Shown piece by piece: positions 1 to 11,909 of a stretch of 11,909 nucleotides of DNA (positions are counted from its first letter, which is position 1; each line of letters starts with the position of its first letter). Source of the DNA: Candidatus Micrarchaeia archaeon (GTDB lineage Archaea; Micrarchaeota; Micrarchaeia; CABMEP01); NCBI GenBank assembly GCA_038886535.1, contig JAVZXS010000014.1, positions 1 to 11,909 on the forward strand, read 5' to 3'. Below the pieces are notes generated by a model. It saw nothing but the letters and a program-made list of their open reading frames with translations, did no database searches and was not told where the DNA came from. Both the position numbers and the translations under genes were made by a program.

Positions 1-2651
1 TTTAGTTTTTTGCCAACATCGGTTTCGCCGATAAAAAGGGTCTCGGTGACGATTTTTTTAGCGGAAATTAAACCCGCTTTGATTTTGCCAATGATAACTT
101 CCGCAAAAGCGCCGATTCTTTCAATAATATCACCGGTTTTTTCATTTTTTACCTGAAAACCTTTTTCTTCATTGCCTTGAATTGAAAAATCACCGGTGGA
201 GGTAAGATAAACATCTGGGTCGTACCAGGAGACATTGACAAAAACCATGATTTTGCCGACATAAATATAATCACTTTCATTAAGCTTATATTCTTTTTTG
301 ATTTCTTCTTTGTTTTCCAAAGAAGAGACGGGGACACGGAAACAGGGTTTTTTAGGATTAGTACCATCATCTTCTGGCCATTTAATTGAAGAGATTGAAG
401 AAACCAAAGGACAATTTTTCTCATTCCAGTGGTCAGTTGATTCTAGAGCTTTGCCAACAACCGGACCGGCTTGGGTGGCTTTCATGCCGAAACCACTCAA
501 ATATGAGGAAGTTATTCTATCACCAATATTTATATTTCCTTTAATTGAAGTAACTTTTGCGGGGACTTTTCCAGCTAAAGCTATTAAGGACTGATTGTCT
601 CTTAATAAAGTATTGTCTTTCAAAAAATTATCTTCATCCTTGGTATTTTTTTTAGCACCAATAATTAACCCAGGACTTGTAGATACAAACCCTAACAGAT
701 ATTTATCATTTTTCTTTTTTGATTTTGTAATTTGTTCTTTTTTAGCACTTTTTTTTATCGAAACCAAATCACCAAACTCAAATTTTTCGTTAGGATTATT
801 ATTATAGTATTCTGCTAAATCAGGTTCGCCAGTACTCCAACCAGACCTTATTCTTCCTTGACCGCTTTCATTAATTGATACTTGCGTTGTTGGTATGTCG
901 GTAGTAGCAGATATTGCGATCCAAAATTTATCATCATCAACCCTAATATCTCTCCTTAAATTTGTACCGGTTCTAAGAACTATTCCTGTTAAGCTATTAG
1001 GGGTTCCTATATCAACAGTACCACCTGTATTTACTTTAAAACGGTAATATGCGTAATATGGACTTGTAGTGCTTGGAATAAATTTTACCACTTCTCTCCA
1101 TCCCTGAGAAGAATGGTATTTGTAAAAACTTAAAGCATTATTATCACCACCATCTATCGTTCCTCTATGTGAAATAGCCCATAGATATCCTGTTTCTGTA
1201 TTATAAAAATATTGACCTGCCGTATAGTTTGCAGTAGTAGTAGTAAGATAACTTAAAGTATGAGTATTTGTTTGGATCCAAAATTTAGGAGGATTTTCAG
1301 CATAAGATGGCGCTGTCGTCCCGATGCCGACGTTGCCAGCAAAGTAGTTTTTATCTCCTGAGTTGCTTTGGTATAAACCAAAAGTATTAGTACCAACAAT
1401 ATCTCCGATATAAACACCATAACCATTAGTAATAGTACCCGCATTTATGCTTGTGCCAAACCAACCACCATATGCATTGGTAACAGTGCCGCCACTGGCG
1501 TAATTATTCGCTAAACCAAATATTCCATAAGCAGATGGCAGAATGCCGGTATTATAATTTCGACCAATACCATATACACCTATAGCATAACTTGAGTTTA
1601 AACTAGTAGCAGTACCATTATATCTTGCTTCTCCAAAGAGACCTTGAATATACTGGCTATATGACCCCACACTATTGACATTTGAGGCAACATAGGCATT
1701 AATTCCTCGATAAGTTTGATTTCCACTTAATGTTTCATCATTAACTGTATTACTGATAGAAGCACCAACTCGGTATCCGTTTCCGGTAAAAGTTTTTGAA
1801 GCATTGATTATTGCAGTAGTTGAGGGAGTGGTTGAAATACCTAAAGTTTCTGTAAATCTTCCATAACCACTAACATCTAAATTATATGCTGGCGCCGTCG
1901 TCCCGATGCCGACTTTGTTATCATTTGTCATAAACATAGTTGAAGTAGAGGAATTATTACGAATATTAAAACCACCAGAACCATAATTGATATACATAAC
2001 ATTATCTGACGAGCGCGGCCACATAAAAGTTTCATAAGTACCTGATGAGTTTTTAGCTTGTAGTGTAGATGCGTTTTCAACTCCAATAGCAGGACTGCCT
2101 ATGATAGTTAATTTTTGTCCCGGCGCCGTCGTCCCGATGCCGACGTTGCCTGAGGAATCAATAGTTACTCTTTCTATTCCACCTGTACCATATCCTGTCT
2201 CTGTAAAAAAACGTAATCTTCCGGAAAAATTATCAATATTCCAATGATTCGTACTTGTAATTAATCGTAAATTTGCACTGTCATTTCCTGTCGTGCCCAA
2301 AATAGATATACTATCCCCATCGTTTGCTTTTATCTCTAATTTTTGCTGAGGATTAGTGATTCCAATGCCGACACTGCCGTTAATATATAAATTCGCATTA
2401 CCGGGGTTATTGGCGCCAATAGCCACTTTTCGAAAAGTTTGAATTTCTTGAGTTCCTCCATGACTTTCGATTTTTAATTGACCAGTAATTGCCAAGGCAG
2501 ATTTAGGTAGTTTTGAAATATCAATTTTTATTTTTGAAGATTTGGATAAATTAATAGCGTAAACAGAAATTAAAATTAAAGAGAATAACAAAATTGCTAA
2601 AAAAGAAAAAGGAAGACGATTTTTAACTTTTTTTTTCCGCTTTTTTTTCAT
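1..2651 (-). CDS. Membrane-anchored or secreted tail-fibre/adhesin-like protein with GNVGIGTTAP repeats and a Peptidase_G2-like C-terminal domain; truncated at the left window edge (>883 aa)
   Basis: Hand translation from ATG 2651 stays open to position 3 with no stop, which is why the ORF track omits it. It begins MKKKRKKKVKNRLPFSFLAILLFSLILISVYAINL (basic stretch, then hydrophobic helix). GxVGIG motifs lie at 2349-2378, 2121-2150, 1890-1919 and 1308-1337. A Gly/Tyr/Asn-rich beta-repeat module (AYGIFGLANNYASGGTVTNAYGGWF...GYGVYIGD) is present. The C-terminal part reads DLAEYY...GDLVSI...LGFVSTSPG...IALAGKVPAKV...GDRITSS...GFGMKAT...VGKALE. Confidence 0.9.
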   Translation of the reverse strand, partial: MKKKRKKKVKNRLPFSFLAILLFSLILISVYAINLSKSSKIKIDISKLPKSALAITGQLKIESHGGTQEIQTFRKVAIGANNPGNANLYINGSVGIGITNPQQKLEIKANDGDSISILGTTGNDSANLRLITSTNHWNIDNFSGRLRFFTETGYGTGGIERVTIDSSGNVGIGTTAPGQKLTIIGSPAIGVENASTLQAKNSSGTYETFMWPRSSDNVMYINYGSGGFNIRNNSSTSTMFMTNDNKVGIGTTAPAYNLDVSGYGRFTETLGISTTPSTTAIINASKTFTGNGYRVGASISNTVNDETLSGNQTYRGINAYVASNVNSVGSYSQYIQGLFGEARYNGTATSLNSSYAIGVYGIGRNYNTGILPSAYGIFGLANNYASGGTVTNAYGGWFGTSINAGTITNGYGVYIGDIVGTNTFGLYQSNSGDKNYFAGNVGIGTTAPSYAENPPKFWIQTNTHTLSYLTTTTANYTAGQYFYNTETGYLWAISHRGTIDGGDNNALSFYKYHSSQGWREVVKFIPSTTSPYYAYYRFKVNTGGTVDIGTPNSLTGIVLRTGTNLRRDIRVDDDKFWIAISATTDIPTTQVSINESGQGRIRSGWSTGEPDLAEYYNNNPNEKFEFGDLVSIKKSAKKEQITKSKKKNDKYLLGFVSTSPGLIIGAKKNTKDEDNFLKDNTLLRDNQSLIALAGKVPAKVTSIKGNINIGDRITSSYLSGFGMKATQAGPVVGKALESTDHWNEKNCPLVSSISSIKWPEDDGTNPKKPCFRVPVSSLENKEEIKKEYKLNESDYIYVGKIMVFVNVSWYDPDVYLTSTGDFSIQGNEEKGFQVKNEKTGDIIERIGAFAEVIIGKIKAGLISAKKIVTETLFIGETDVGKKL
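230..821 (-). other. Peptidase_G2-like intramolecular chaperone / autocleavage domain within the 2651..<1 CDS
   Basis: The motif series DLAEYY, GDLV, GFVSTSPG, ALAGKVPAKV, IGDRITSS, GMKA, VGKALE, GKIMVFV matches my recollection of PF11962-like domains at the C-termini of fibre proteins. Recognised by eye, no HMM run. Confidence 0.6.
1308..1337 (-). repeat. GC-rich 30-bp module-boundary repeat, copy 3 (GGCAACGTCGGCATCGGGACGACAGCGCCA)
   Basis: 28/30 identical to 2121-2150; encodes GNVGIGTTAP. Confidence 0.9.
1890..1919 (-). repeat. GC-rich module-boundary repeat, copy 2 (AACAAAGTCGGCATCGGGACGACGGCGCCA)
   Basis: 1891-1913 is a 23-bp exact match to 2122-2144; encodes NKVGIGTTAP. Confidence 0.9.
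2121..2150 (-). repeat. GC-rich 30-bp module-boundary repeat, copy 1 (GGCAACGTCGGCATCGGGACGACGGCGCCG)
   Basis: 23 of 30 bases are G+C in an AT-rich gene; encodes GNVGIGTTAP. Confidence 0.9.
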
Positions 2652-2690
2652 TTTTTTAAAGAAGTATGTAAATATTGATTGGTTAATTTT

Positions 2691-2719
2691 AAGATAAACA
2701 ATTTTAAAACAGTTGTCAA
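2691..2719 (-). promoter_or_regulatory. Putative sigma70 promoter for the 2651..<1 gene
   Basis: Minus strand shows a perfect -35 TTGACA (2719-2714), a 17-bp spacer and a -10-like TATCTT (2696-2691), 40 bp upstream of the ATG. Confidence 0.6.
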
Positions 2720-2814: not shown

Positions 2815-2937
2815 AAAACCATATCTTAAATCTATAAATCTTTAATCAATCCTTAAATAACTAAGATAACCAAATTCTCTCCTTATAGCGAAATCCTCTA
2901 TAAGTGATAAAATCCAAATAAAATTAAAAAAATTCAT

Positions 2938-3030
2938 TAACTCGCTAACTCGTTAACTCGCTAATTCTTTAATTTTTTAATTTTTTTAATAATTTAACTC
3001 GTAAACTCGCTAACCCGCTAACTCGCTAAC
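2938..3030. repeat. Two octamer tandem arrays (TAACTCGY) just downstream of the giant gene's stop codon
   Basis: 2938-2967 reads taactcgc taactcgt taactcgc taattc; 2995-3030 reads taactcgt aaactcgc taacccgc taactcgc taac. An A/T-only spacer separates them. Confidence 0.95.
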
Positions 3031-3033
3031 TTT

Positions 3034-9549
<6,516 letters not shown>

Positions 9550-9633: not shown

Positions 9634-9687
9634 AAGTTAAAAGTTTAAAATTCAAAGTTGAAAATTTCAGTTCAAAATTCAAAGTTT
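9634..9687. repeat. Heptamer array forming the downstream arm of the four-helix-bundle gene
   Basis: aagtt aaaagtt taaaatt caaagtt gaaaattt cagtt caaaatt caaagtt, abutting the TGA stop; inverted relative to 10069-10129. Confidence 0.85.
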
Positions 9688-10068
9688 TCATAGTTTATTT
9701 TTTCCTTTTAAACTAGTAATACTTGCTCCTAAAATTTTGGCTAATTCATCGGTTTCTTTTAATATTTCATTAATTTCAAAAATTAAATTATTATCCAGCT
9801 CTTTACTTAGAGCTAACCAAAATTTACTTTCATTGGCGCTTTTTAAAGCATGATTTAGAAAATTAATAAAATCTTTTTTAGAACTGGCGGATTGAGCTTC
9901 AATAACATTGCTTCCAATTAAAGTACCTGCTCTTAAAAGCTGGTCAGTTATTACCCAGGCAGAGCGCTTATTGGGAAATTTATCAACTAAAACAATAATT
10001 CTTCGAGCTAAATTAAAAACTCTTCTTATTAGTTGTTTTTTGAACTTTTCATTGGTTAATTTTTTCAT
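9688..10068 (-). CDS. Four-helix-bundle protein (TIGR02436 / PF05635 23S rRNA IVP-like family)
   Basis: 126 aa carrying the family pattern R.F.LA..II.LV..FP....W.I.DQLLRAGT.IGSNVIEAQSASSKKDFINFL..ALKSANESKFWL.L...E..EL.KIL..SI. Confidence 0.9.
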   Translation of the reverse strand: MKKLTNEKFKKQLIRRVFNLARRIIVLVDKFPNKRSAWVITDQLLRAGTLIGSNVIEAQSASSKKDFINFLNHALKSANESKFWLALSKELDNNLIFEINEILKETDELAKILGASITSLKGKNKL

Positions 10069-10129
10069 AACTTTAATAACTTTAAACTTTAAATTGTAAC
10101 TTTTAACTTTTAACTTTGAACTTTGAACT
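10069..10129. repeat. Heptamer array (AACTTTD) forming the upstream arm of the four-helix-bundle gene
   Basis: AACTTTA at 10069, 10078 and 10085; AACTTTT at 10098 and 10105; AACTTTG at 10112 and 10119; AACT at 10126. It abuts the ATG. Confidence 0.9.
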
Positions 10130-10140
10130 AATTAAGGTTT

Positions 10141-11909
10141 TTATTGTCCAAATCTTATGGCTGAACTTTCATTGTATAAATTTTTAATTTGAACGGGCGT
10201 TAAAGCATAATTGTAAATCCGAACATCATCAATTTGCCCCGCATATCTTTCGCTGGCATTTGATCTTTGGCCGATATTTACATTAGTTGAGTTACTGCTG
10301 GTAATACTACCGGTGCGGGAATTGCTGGCAACTTGTGAGCCGTTAAGATAAAGTTTGATATTACTGCCGTCATAAGTACAGATAAGATGAGACCAGGTAT
10401 TATTAGGAAGGGTAGAGGAATATACCGCGGTATTGCCGGTATCACCAACTTGACAGGTTGGATAGCCGTTGGAGTCGGTATAAAGCCGGAATTCTCCACC
10501 TTTGTGAATTAAGGTTTTGCCGGTTTGATTATTTGTCGCTTTTACCCAAGCGGCCCAAGAAACATTAGAATAATTTTGAGAGTCAGCGGTAATTAGAGCA
10601 ATATTGCCGGTAGCAACATAGTCGTCTGTTCCATCAAAATTTAAACTGGCGTTAAATTTTCCATTAACACCATTGTACCAAGCACCAGAGGAGGTACAAG
10701 TTCCTGCGGAAGTTTGGCTTCCCGAAGCGCCAATGGTAATGGTACCATTATTGTTATTTCCTGATGAATCATAAGCGGTTGTTCCTTGGCATTCATCAAA
10801 TTTCCAATGAGCAATTGGTGCGCCTCGATTATAATCCCAAGCAATCTGAGCGGGCGTTCGGGCGTAGTTGTAGATTTTAAAATTATCAATCAAACCCTTA
10901 AACCATTCATATGGAGATAAATTCATACTCCCCATTCTAAAATAACCAGAAGGCGTTTTTAAATTACCACTAGTATCTAATTCGACGTTTAAAATGCCGT
11001 CAATATATAGTTTTGCTTTATTATTATTAGCATCATAGACTCCTTCTAAATGATGCCAGGTGTTGTAAGGAAGAATATTGTTTGAATACAAATCATATCT
11101 TGTTCCTGAAGTATTAAAGAAAAACAAAACTACTTTTCCTTTATTAGCTCCATAAGCTGGTCCTAAAACGTGAGCGTAAGCTGATATTGGTCCGGGATAA
11201 CCACCAGTGCCGTTGGTAAAAAACTGAGGATAATCTATCGTTGGCATTGGATTTTTAAACCAGAATGAGTAAGTAATACTATTTGAGGTGATTGTATTCA
11301 TTTGAACATAATCATCCACTCCATCAAAACTTAAAGCGGAGCCTATTTTTCCCTGAGTCCAACTTGGGCCATTCATCAGGGTGCCTGAGTTTCCATTTCC
11401 GCTAATATCATAAGCATACTGTCCTTGTTTTTCATCAAATTTCCACTCCGCCACCGGTGGAGCGCAGTAATCGCTAGAACCAGGAACGCAGTATTCCGCT
11501 GAGGCGGAATTTGAGGCAACAGAACCGCCGGAGAGTGCCGAGGTATCTGATAAGCTTCCCAACACTATTGCAGAACCTCGGTTATATTCTTGTTTTATTT
11601 CATCTTCAGAGAGAGCGTAATTGTAGATTTTGACTTCGTCGATAAGGCCAATGTAACTGGCAGCGCCAATATTAACTGAAGTTCCAAAACTGACTCCGGT
11701 AGTTGAGCTAGCGGTTTGTTTGCCATTTTGATAAATCTTACAAACATTGGCCCCGTCTGAAATAACAACAATGTGTGTCCAGTGATTTAAAGGAATAACT
11801 GTTCCAGTGCAATTACCGTAAACTGGTCGTGAAGAAGAATCGGTTGTTAATTTGCTGGCTGTTATTAAAGTTTTACTAGCGACGTTGGTATTAGGATTAA
11901 GCCAAAGAG
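10141..11909 (-). CDS. Multi-LamG (concanavalin A-like lectin / laminin G3) domain protein; its start lies beyond the right window edge
   Basis: The frame of the 474-aa track ORF stays open to the edge (LWLNPNT...NHWTHIVVISDG...KIYQNG...YIGLIDEVKIYNYALSEDEIKQEYNRGS). This gives at least three LamG-like units with W.FDE..G..AYD.SGN, AL.FDG.DDYV, W.H, and G.ID..KIYNYA motifs; the first unit is partial. Confidence 0.92.
   Translation of the reverse strand, partial: LWLNPNTNVASKTLITASKLTTDSSSRPVYGNCTGTVIPLNHWTHIVVISDGANVCKIYQNGKQTASSTTGVSFGTSVNIGAASYIGLIDEVKIYNYALSEDEIKQEYNRGSAIVLGSLSDTSALSGGSVASNSASAEYCVPGSSDYCAPPVAEWKFDEKQGQYAYDISGNGNSGTLMNGPSWTQGKIGSALSFDGVDDYVQMNTITSNSITYSFWFKNPMPTIDYPQFFTNGTGGYPGPISAYAHVLGPAYGANKGKVVLFFFNTSGTRYDLYSNNILPYNTWHHLEGVYDANNNKAKLYIDGILNVELDTSGNLKTPSGYFRMGSMNLSPYEWFKGLIDNFKIYNYARTPAQIAWDYNRGAPIAHWKFDECQGTTAYDSSGNNNNGTITIGASGSQTSAGTCTSSGAWYNGVNGKFNASLNFDGTDDYVATGNIALITADSQNYSNVSWAAWVKATNNQTGKTLIHKGGEFRLYTDSNGYPTCQVGDTGNTAVYSSTLPNNTWSHLICTYDGSNIKLYLNGSQVASNSRTGSITSSNSTNVNIGQRSNASERYAGQIDDVRIYNYALTPVQIKNLYNESSAIRFGQ

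Follow-up and report, generated by a model that had tools for sequence, protein, structure and literature searches.

RESULTS

Two fibre-like genes and the family of P0001

The window (the whole 11,909-nucleotide stretch of a Candidatus Micrarchaeia archaeon that was analysed) carries two neighbouring genes for fibre-like proteins, both on the minus strand. P0001 (3..2651) encodes a predicted surface protein of 883 residues; its 3′ end is missing, since base 1 of the window is also the start of the contig. P0002 (3034..9549) encodes 2171 residues. Pfam matches among the ORFs of the window are limited to 23S_rRNA_IVP and Laminin_G_3-type families; the 23S_rRNA_IVP ORF (a bAvd-like fold family) lies at 9688–10068.

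The translation of P0001 has a hydrophobic stretch, a putative anchor, at its N-terminus. Three modules, A (2151–2348), B (1920–2120), and C (1338–1889), precede a predicted tip or chaperone-like region. A Pfam search at E ≤ 0.01 gave no family for P0001, S74 included, and the C-terminus is cut off by the contig end. Its homologues P0003, P0004, and P0007 carry Peptidase_S74, and P0005 carries Peptidase_G2. Residues 132–306 match the Bdellovibrio Bd2133 fibre (8ond_A) with an E-value of 4.7e-8 by phmmer, which also finds 8oml, 8on4, and 8ojn, and in the alignment the Bd2133 repeats GNLGLGTAAP and GNVGIGATAP line up with the motif of P0001 described below. The PHROGs tail fiber families phrog_9942 (9.8e-10) and phrog_18345 match as well. 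P0001 is thus a predicted tail-fibre-like adhesin, related to the mosaic adhesive trimer (MAT) fibres of Bdellovibrio. The available text on that mosaic family (Caulton et al., 2024; PMC10769870) describes capping loops on a trimeric β-helix with the consensus V-G-G/N-pi-x-x-P-x-x-x-L, and the VGIGTTAPxxKL of P0001 differs from it by one residue in the spacing of the proline.

Judged by alignment, the homologues of P0001 are mosaic, with alignment ends piling up at the motifs. Of 593 BLASTP HSPs against homologues, 190 end at residues 440–459, and viral relatives, which are 27–58% identical over parts of the protein, have matches that all end (19/19) at residues 444–450, in the third motif. 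Among the 40 nearest genomes none gave a P0001 match or an orthologue, and the related loci that were fetched contain no close DNA relative.

Three GC-rich islands between unrelated modules

The motif GNVGIGTTAP or a close variant is encoded three times in P0001 by almost the same DNA, always on the minus strand. Copy 1 (2121..2150) reads GGC AAC GTC GGC ATC GGG ACG ACG GCG CCG (GNVGIGTTAP, residues 168–177), copy 2 (1890..1919) reads AAC AAA GTC GGC ATC GGG ACG ACG GCG CCA (NKVGIGTTAP, residues 245–254), and copy 3 (1308..1337) reads GGC AAC GTC GGC ATC GGG ACG ACA GCG CCA (GNVGIGTTAP, residues 439–448). All three contain the in-frame core GTCGGCATCGGGACGAC(R)GCGCC. A tract of 23 bases, running through GGCGCC, is identical in copies 1 and 2, and copy 3 differs from them by a single base, ACA for ACG. 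A pattern search of the window with GTCGGCATCGGGACGAC gave exact matches at 1315–1331, 1897–1913, and 2128–2144, all on the minus strand, and a fourth match with three mismatches at 6191–6207; four or more matches were seen in none of 200 dinucleotide shuffles. The shared cores reported in the initial annotation are therefore real. Its suggestion of searching the genome for the word gave only these three sites in the 1.137-Mb genome bin, with up to two mismatches allowed.

The islands are direct repeats, with start-to-start distances of 231 and 582 bp, that is 77 and 194 codons, so that the frame is kept as had been claimed. No similarity was found between the flanks of the three islands on alignment, and BLASTP finds no likeness among modules A, B, and C outside a 16-residue motif, which agrees with the earlier description of the intervening sequences as unrelated. 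P0001 is hence built of a glycine-rich motif set between unrelated segments.

The GC content of the 30-mer at 2121–2150 is 0.77 (the 23 of 30 originally counted) and that at 1308–1337 is 0.70, in a gene with a GC3 of 0.242, or 0.220 without the three ten-codon island blocks. All 12 eight-codon windows of P0001 with at least seven GC-ending codons lie at the islands, and the 90 island nucleotides hold 17 of the 81 CpGs of the gene. Copy 1 has seven CpGs of a possible seven, and among the 393,216 ways of encoding it synonymously only 14 exceed it in duplex stability. In the codon usage of the bin (634 ORFs, contig C14 excluded), nine of its ten codons account for only 6–12% of their synonymous sets and AAC for 25%; the ten-codon usage products for the three copies are 6.5e-11, 2.5e-9, and 3.1e-9. 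Codon usage sets contig C14 apart from the rest of its bin, with ATA/Ile at 0.08 against about 0.5 and ACC/Thr at 0.33 against about 0.1, and the CPR host implied in the initial annotation is doubtful.

Related motifs in AT-type codons occur at 2349–2378 in P0001 and at 6184–6213, 6439–6468, and 8194–8223 in P0002, where they serve as an internal control. Three of these had been pointed out before, but those at 2349 and 6184 are not wholly AT-rich, since they still carry GTCGGCAT. The first, on the minus strand at 2349..2378, reads GGC AGT GTC GGC ATT GGA ATC ACT AAT CCT (GSVGIGITNP, residues 92–101); it retains GTCGGCAT and has its 3′ half in AT codons. The argument that protein constraint does not explain the identity of the DNA is supported by the rare codons, by the GC3 island, and by the excess over codon usage described next.

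The same DNA word in other genomes

A word of about 24 nt, GGC AAC GTC GGC ATC GGG ACG ACG, recurs widely: hundreds of fibre genes carry it, in CPR bacteria, in DPANN archaea, and in other MAGs, and the GC3 of its flanks ranges from 0.16 to 0.76. The exact 23-mer is present in at least 127 stretches (at least 145 copies) of metagenome contigs, with flank GC of 0.31–0.61 among the matches listed. In species genomes, GGCAACGTCGGCATCGGGACGAC occurs in at least 158 stretches, and the matches listed come from MAGs of many CPR groups, of DPANN and methanogen archaea, and of Omnitrophica, Elusimicrobia, Proteobacteria, Planctomycetes, Acidobacteria, and Bacteroidia. De-duplicated copies were relied on, while some other counts include copies doubled through overlapping loci.

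In unbiased samples the word is about 50–100 times commoner than codon usage predicts. In viral contigs, forms of the type GTCGG[C/T]AT[C/T]GGGACG were observed 18 times against 0.19 expected from the codon usage of the same ORFs (207 copies), and a near-GC form is present in 22 of 117 viral contig groups. Five whole AT-rich genomes have the exact 17-mer at 22 of 75 sites coding for VGIGTT, clustered by gene. In 201 genomes of one CPR-type phylum it is exact at 10 of 150 listed sites (there are 147 further sites), and is the commonest single form listed. The edges of the island are sharp: among de-duplicated non-seed copies in ORFs with flank GC3 below 0.40 (108 and 79 copies), GC3 is 0.59–0.89 at codons −2 to +5 and 0.12–0.56 outside.

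The word is not used throughout. Other fibre genes of the same genomes, and very AT-rich viral relatives, have AT codons in the motif. Ten viral-contig copies of DKNYFAGNVG[I/L]G (about seven distinct sequences) are 3–7 mismatches away from the GC form, with GC3 of 0.10–0.22 in seven and 0.39–0.57 in three, and in an unbiased viral sample all 112 copies with flank GC3 below 0.25 follow host composition. The initial annotation suggested testing whether the third positions are conserved regardless of host GC, and named motif codons that follow the host among the evidence that would speak against its reading. Such evidence is found in part, since in the AT-rich viral relatives, which carry the same module (DKNYFAGNVGIG...), the motif codons do follow the host. 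Only some of the genes are thus in the GC form, which is not required universally.

A 42-nt island query gave no match at E ≤ 0.01 in GenBank phages or in PLSDB plasmids, so that all the evidence comes from uncultured material. A literature search on the motif peptide and a 15-nt DNA word returned no paper on either, only unrelated papers on microcins and antimicrobial peptides, and the titles and abstracts found on tail fiber recombination in Patescibacteria contain nothing on such a word.

Breakpoints of relatives fall inside the word

If the islands are crossover points, then related genes should have breakpoints at the motif, as was suggested at the outset. This is what is found in relatives. 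Three pairs of metagenome contigs that are nearly identical have five junctions between them at which identity sets in or breaks off, and all five lie inside the island. One pair (L037/L094) is 99.3% identical over 919 bp, the second (L022/L038) is 97% identical over 990 bp and 99% over 125 bp, and the third (L048/L053) shares a 228-bp cassette at 98.7%. Of 58 HSP ends, 29 are no more than 15 nt away from a motif, which holds for 9.7% of random positions. Several of these comparisons repeat one relation through overlapping loci, and some clustering of ends at motifs is to be expected, since nothing but the motif is conserved enough to anchor an alignment. The view of the islands as recombination sites is thus upheld in so far as they delimit unrelated in-frame modules and the same word holds the breakpoints of relatives; its site-specific version is not supported, as described below.

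All three contig pairs are short-read assemblies, and a short shared word is also a place where an assembler may make a chimeric join.

Possible remnants, artefacts, or codon constraint

The islands might be a historical remnant of modules from a GC-richer donor, or an artefact of chimeric assembly at shared k-mers. The codon usage of contig C14 and the missing orthologue in the 40 nearest genomes are in keeping with this, as are the half-eroded copies at 2349–2378 and 6184–6213, and where a genome is GC-rich the word reflects no more than ordinary codon usage. However, GC3 is back at the host level within one or two codons on both sides of the island. Since amelioration affects every synonymous site equally, a remnant that nothing maintained would be expected to erode together with its flanks. 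As for an artefact, a word of 24–30 nt is presumably shorter than a read, and it is also found inside contigs of 370–620 kb and in contigs from many projects. Two sequencing runs contain 87% and 75% of the 31-mers sampled from window positions 1000–2700, and may be the source samples. We consider this explanation unlikely. The runs that share 31-mers with the window are labelled hot springs metagenome.

Alternatively the codons might be constrained for reasons apart from recombination, either by an mRNA or DNA hairpin or by a ribosome pause at rare codons that assists folding or trimerisation of the β-helix modules. The island codons are indeed rare in the host, and the third positions, all C in the 5′ half and all G in the 3′ half, make a quasi-palindrome, with a folding energy of −16.6 kcal/mol for copy 1. 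The z-scores against shuffled sequence are, however, only −1.70, −1.50, and −0.56 for the three copies. Third-position complementarity is 106 against 61.6 expected, but controls are equally high: with one copy per contig, the V3–T1 ratio is 1.48, and control pairs give 1.39–1.44. The hairpin was rejected on these grounds. The 5-bp dyad noted in the initial annotation is complete in copy 1 and incomplete in copies 2 and 3, and its stability is not beyond that of shuffles. An Rfam search of the window gave no match at E ≤ 1. Fibre genes of the same genomes, and the window itself, have motifs in AT codons, so that the loop evidently folds without need of the GC form, and the word is also present at flank GC3 up to 0.76, where these codons should be less rare. 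A constraint of this type appears to us quite improbable.

Site-specific recombination as an improbable alternative

Short repeated DNA sites bounding exchangeable adhesin or cassette modules are known from R64-type shufflons (Rci acting with sfx repeats in pilV) and from integron attC sites. The idea that a dedicated integron-, shufflon-, or invertase-like system recognises the 17–23-bp core, and excises, inserts, or shuffles modules, draws on the identical GC-rich repeats within coding sequence, as for sfx sites, on the partial dyad in copy 1, on a Shufflon_N (PF04917) protein-domain match in the homologue P0007, and on two IS200-like Y1 transposases among 103 neighbouring ORFs at 63 related loci. 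We regard it as very improbable, since no recombinase was found among the window ORFs, no tyrosine or serine recombinase domain (0/103) among those neighbouring ORFs, the sites are all in direct orientation and in frame, not inverted, neither a folded site nor covariation beyond controls is supported, and a word spread over so many bacterial and archaeal phyla is hard to reconcile with a single host-encoded enzyme.

A diversity-generating retroelement target is not supported either: the window contains no reverse transcriptase, its 23S_rRNA_IVP ORF is the sole item that could be related, and no long near-repeat pair involves the islands.

DISCUSSION

The reading that we prefer is that the islands are short-homology crossover or gene-conversion points for the in-frame exchange of modules, kept near-identical, CpG-maximal, and close to maximal stability. 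We give it a probability of roughly 0.55. The data show the islands themselves, how far they exceed codon usage, that they recur across lineages, and that breakpoints in relatives lie inside them. We infer that exchange also takes place within P0001 itself, that it is driven by homology rather than by a specific enzyme, and that the word is maintained by biased conversion or by selection for exchangeability.

The proposed mechanism is as follows. Each GNVGIGTTAPxxKL motif would open a new structural module, and the island, as the DNA side of the motif, would act as a short patch of perfect homology for recombination or gene conversion with other copies in the same gene, with other fibre genes, or with incoming DNA. 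Because all islands are in one reading frame, any crossover between them removes, repeats, or exchanges entire modules without a frameshift; modules of 77 or 194 codons would be affected here. We read the sharply bounded GC island as a mark left by repeated heteroduplex formation that is limited to the sole homologous stretch. Homogenisation with GC-biased repair, or the preferred success of the most stable pairing, would yield such an island, which in turn would offer some 23 nt or more of identity and so enable further exchange. With 23 nt, the identity would only just reach the minimum for RecA-type exchange. GC-biased conversion accounts for G or C at third positions, and does not account for the same choices of C versus G recurring across phyla.

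A bolder version, which we put forward only tentatively, is that the word of about 24 nt, GGCAACGTCGGCATCGGGACGACG, is a cross-domain ‘standard connector’: a CpG-maximal encoding of the fibre loop motif, close to maximal stability, kept at synonymous sites against the AT pressure of the host because its carriers (CPR bacteria, DPANN archaea, other bacteria, and their viruses) can trade adhesin cassettes with any other carrier. Such a connector would work as an adaptor for recombination that reinforces itself, or as a selfish DNA word, hidden in coding sequence and driven by conversion.

The closest precedent is the gp38 adhesins of T-even phages (Tetart et al., 1998), in which crossovers within small conserved glycine-rich motifs (GRMs) give chimeric adhesins, according to the available text of Trojet et al. 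(2011; PMC3157838) and of PMC12032242, where the point is restated. In both cases short, conserved, glycine-rich motifs part hypervariable receptor-binding segments of a phage-type fibre adhesin, and the proposed principle is the same. However, gp38 is small, monomeric, and apparently unrelated in sequence, and the Pfam and PHROG matches of P0001 include no gp38-related family. The motif of P0001 is predicted to be the repeat-start loop of a trimeric β-helix fibre in cellular genomes, and its island is one CpG-maximal encoding common to phyla of both bacteria and archaea, irrespective of flank GC; a synonymous-site island is not described for gp38 in the available text of PMC3157838 and PMC12032242. 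The MAT fibres (Bd2133; 8ond, 8oml, 8on4, 8ojn) resemble P0001 in their mosaic domains and probably in their repeated xGNxGxGTxxPxxxL loop motif; they have S74 or other tips, and P0001, cut at its C-terminus, has no Pfam S74 match. In the available text of PMC10769870 their mosaicism is treated at the level of protein and structure, with no DNA-level conservation or exchange mechanism, and recombination is mentioned only for strain construction.

Our preferred reading of the islands, if true, would widen the idea of recombination at motifs, as in gp38, from one phage group to a fibre family in both prokaryotic domains. It would also provide a clear natural example of synonymous sites that are maintained in spite of the base composition of the genome, and make it possible to ask directly whether prokaryotic coding DNA is shaped by biased gene conversion or by selection for exchangeability. 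Episymbiotic CPR bacteria and DPANN archaea hold their hosts by surface fibres, and fibre genes are among their most variable. If the word does mark module exchange, then it would provide a sequence handle on cassette boundaries, and on gene flow between very distant lineages.

GC-rich islands in a fibre-like gene

A pattern scan of the window with GTCGGCATCGGGACGAC gave three exact matches in all, on the minus strand at 1315-1331, 1897-1913 and 2128-2144; no shuffle out of 200 equalled the window's match count. The GC-rich islands around them (copy 3 at 1308..1337, copy 2 at 1890..1919 and copy 1 at 2121..2150) are spaced 231 and 582 bp from start to start, and all lie in frame within ORF 3..2651(-). 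The product, P0001, is a fibre-like protein of 883 residues, whose 3' coding end is missing because window base 1 is also the first base of the contig, C14 (JAVZXS010000014.1). Over 23 nt, copy 1 matches copy 2 base for base, and copy 3 is off by one base; the encoded peptides are GNVGIGTTAP (residue 168), NKVGIGTTAP (245) and GNVGIGTTAP (439). The GC3 of P0001 is 0.242, or 0.220 with the three island blocks left out. In this gene 12 eight-codon windows have 7 or more codons ending in G or C; all fall at the islands, whose 90 nt also contain 17 of the gene's 81 CpGs. The exact matches, the shuffles and the GC3 contrast confirm the initial annotation's three conserved, GC-rich, in-frame sites in an AT-rich gene. 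It was also right that the sequences between the sites are unrelated, their likeness ending with a 16-residue motif, and that AT-type codons encode further copies of the motif elsewhere in the window (at 2349, 6184 and 6439, and also 8194); GTCGGCAT is kept in two of these four.

C14 is the strongest codon-usage outlier among the contigs of its genome bin (ATA/Ile 0.08 vs about 0.5 in the rest, ACC/Thr 0.33 vs about 0.1, AAG/Lys 0.08 vs about 0.33). It may be misbinned, foreign or horizontally acquired, and composition was therefore judged against C14 itself. In the bin, nine of the ten copy 1 codons make up 6-12% of their synonymous sets, and AAC makes up 25%. A search of the 40 nearest genomes found no match to P0001. 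The word was found, with up to one mismatch, in 5 of 401 genomes of the bin's phylum; fibre-type sites among these have a locus GC of 0.50-0.59, where the island codons are ordinary, and in two of the five the matching sites are not fibre motifs.

GNVGIGTTAP has 393,216 synonymous encodings, of which only 14 exceed the duplex stability of the word (nearest-neighbour energy) and none exceeds its CpG count of 7 out of 7. Third positions are C in the five 5' codons and G in the five 3' codons, which produces a quasi-palindrome. As a selected structure this finds no support: the islands fold no more strongly than shuffles, third-position complementarity equals that of control pairs when each contig is counted once, and no Rfam family matches in the window.

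Relation to mosaic fibres

No Pfam or NCBIfam family matched P0001, which is matched by PHROG tail-fibre families. Residues 132-306 align with Bd2133, a Bdellovibrio fibre of known structure (8ond, E 4.7e-8), and with the structures of three more fibres of the "cell wall surface anchor family", and the motif lies opposite their GNLGLGTAAP and GNVGIGATAP repeats. The available extracts of Caulton et al. (2024, PMC10769870) describe such fibres as mosaic adhesive trimers, intertwined trimeric β-helices with recurring capping loops and tips that are S74 or other. The database homologues of P0001 are likewise mosaic, the best non-self match spanning 42% of the query, and they include Peptidase_S74 or Peptidase_G2 domains. 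Of 593 HSPs, 265 begin at residues 80-99, which is motif 0 (2349..2378(-), residues 92-101), and 190 stop at residues 440-459, which is motif 3 (copy 3).

One homologue, P0007, carries Pfam Shufflon_N (the PilV constant region; residues 295-350, E 9e-12) besides Peptidase_S74, which ties the fibres to the pilus adhesins of shufflons at the protein level.

The same word in other genomes

A 23-mer scan of metagenome contigs gave at least 127 stretches with at least 145 copies, at a flank GC of 0.31-0.61; many genes among the matches listed have two or three exact copies. The GGCAACGTCGGCATCGGGACGAC scan of species genomes gave at least 158 stretches, some enclosed in contigs of 370-620 kb. Among the matches listed, the records are MAGs throughout, labelled as many CPR groups, Woesearchaeota, Aenigmatarchaeota, Methanosarcinales, Methanoregula, Omnitrophica, Elusimicrobia, Gammaproteobacteria, Planctomycetes, Acidobacteria and Bacteroidia. 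Most non-seed motif copies in the matched ORFs have the same word. In de-duplicated non-seed copies with an ORF flank GC3 below 0.40 (108 from metagenomes and 79 from genomes), GC3 is 0.59-0.89 over codons -2 to +5 (GGC AAC GTC GGC ATC GGG ACG ACG) and 0.12-0.56 outside them on either flank.

Ascertainment was controlled with a peptide-only degenerate pattern, AAYGTNGGNATHGGNACNAC, which matched viral contigs at 216 places inside ORFs. In the 112 copies whose flank GC3 is below 0.25, the motif tracks the host, with a GC3 of 0.18 and no exact 17-mer; in the 84 copies at 0.25-0.45 its GC3 is 0.47-0.56, with six exact 17-mers. Forms GTCGG[C/T]AT[C/T]GGGACG occur 18 times in the viral contigs vs 0.19 expected from same-ORF codon usage, AT forms occur at 1-8 times expectation, and a near-GC form is present in 22 of 117 viral contig groups. 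In viral contigs, the module preceding motif 3 (DKNYFAGNVG[I/L]G) comes with AT-type motif codons that differ from the GC form by 3-7 mismatches. Across five AT-rich genomes scanned whole, the exact 17-mer makes up 22 of 75 VGIGTT-coding sites, grouped in particular genes, with AT forms in other fibre genes of those genomes. One CPR-type phylum was sampled evenly with 201 genomes, of which 75 have such sites (150 sites listed and 147 further sites); of the 150 listed, 10, spread over four genomes, have the exact word and 7 its commonest one-base variant. It is therefore concluded from these controls that the GC form, strongly over-represented, characterises a subset of fibre genes and is no universal property of the motif. 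The proposed independence of the motif codons from host GC holds in that subset, and fails in the viral copies of lowest flank GC3.

Proposed exchange at the word

Fetched loci were compared all against all by blastn; 31 HSPs joined different contigs over 100 bp or more at 80% identity or higher. Of 58 non-edge HSP ends, some repeating one relation via overlapping loci, 29 lie within 15 nt of a motif, vs 9.7% of random nearby positions. Three contig pairs give a clean picture. Loci L037 and L094 are 99.3% identical over 919 bp up to and through an island, and then unrelated. L022 and L038 agree at 97% over the 990 bp that lead to one island, and at 99% from the next island onward; between these islands there are about 970 bp with an intein in L022, and two fibre modules (447 bp) in L038. 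One 228-bp module is common to L048 and L053 (98.7%), with an island at both ends and unrelated neighbours. Identity thus switches inside an island at 5 of 5 junctions in three contig pairs, which are short-read metagenome contigs, in which a chimeric join would likewise fall at the shared 24-30-mer. The predicted breakpoints at the motif are accordingly seen in contigs of relatives, with chimeric joins possible.

Fibre adhesins seldom carry inteins. The intein-like insert in the L022 fibre gene (about 1180-2110 of Ga0138355_1006030; CITGDSLL ... TGNHPYL ... HNFVANGIIAHN/T) lies nine codons past a GC-form motif, and part of it recurs from about 2400; the near-identical L038 has the two fibre modules at its site.

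Neighbouring genes and other repeats

A co-occurring tyrosine recombinase had been suggested. None is present among the window ORFs. The 103 ORFs adjoining 63 related loci contain no tyrosine or serine recombinase; they include one rve integrase, two IS200-like Y1 transposases and one group II intron reverse transcriptase. There is no sign of a dedicated enzyme at the window or the related loci. Recurrent neighbours are 23S_rRNA_IVP (4), Cupredoxin_1 (5), LamG (2), DUF4143/AAA_14 and housekeeping genes.

The window's other ORFs encode a 23S_rRNA_IVP protein (9688-10068; a bAvd-like fold family) and a Laminin_G_3 protein (10141-11907). Genes of these two kinds repeatedly adjoin GC-form fibre genes (L035, L066, L080, L094, L025 and L050), with no reverse transcriptase beside them in the window or at those six loci.

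The fibre genes and the IVP gene are preceded by intergenic regions (2745-2847, 2937-3031, 9640-9687 and 10077-10129) full of tandem 7-8-mers (AAATCTT x14.7, TAACTCGC, TAACTTT x7.7), which could be promoter spacers or length-variable elements. A 29-nt inverted repeat (2936-2964 and 3848-3876, 90% complementary, 883 nt apart) has one arm in the octamer array that precedes P0001 and the other inside the 3' part of P0002, the 2171-residue fibre-like neighbour (3034..9549(-)); it could mark an invertible segment or be a chance product of the array. Three copies of a unit of about 990 bp in P0002 (5696-7842; 77-96% identical over 161 nt) point to a recent internal duplication of putative modules of about 330 residues.

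Proposed mechanism

Homology-driven exchange is the most economical reading of these sequences, and for P0001 itself a candidate process. Because the motif is the sole stretch alike between different modules and genes, heteroduplex and crossover would be confined to it. Repeated conversion would make the copies identical, and GC-biased repair, or the advantage of the most stable pairing, would push third positions to G or C. The resulting perfect identity of at least 23 nt would favour further in-frame deletion, duplication and swapping of modules. T-even gp38 adhesins are similar in their exchange at short conserved motifs; the extracts of PMC3157838 and PMC12032242 report such exchange at glycine-rich motifs as proposed and shown in crosses. 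Biased conversion alone does not account for the same C/G choices across phyla, which may reflect shared cassette traffic or selection for compatibility.

A literature search had no hit for the peptide string or for the DNA word, and the extracts of PMC10769870 do not discuss DNA-level conservation of mosaic adhesive trimers. As a kind of mechanism, recombination of fibre adhesins between their conserved motifs is already known. What appears to be new is a specific synonymous-site island, common to bacterial and archaeal fibre genes whatever their GC content.
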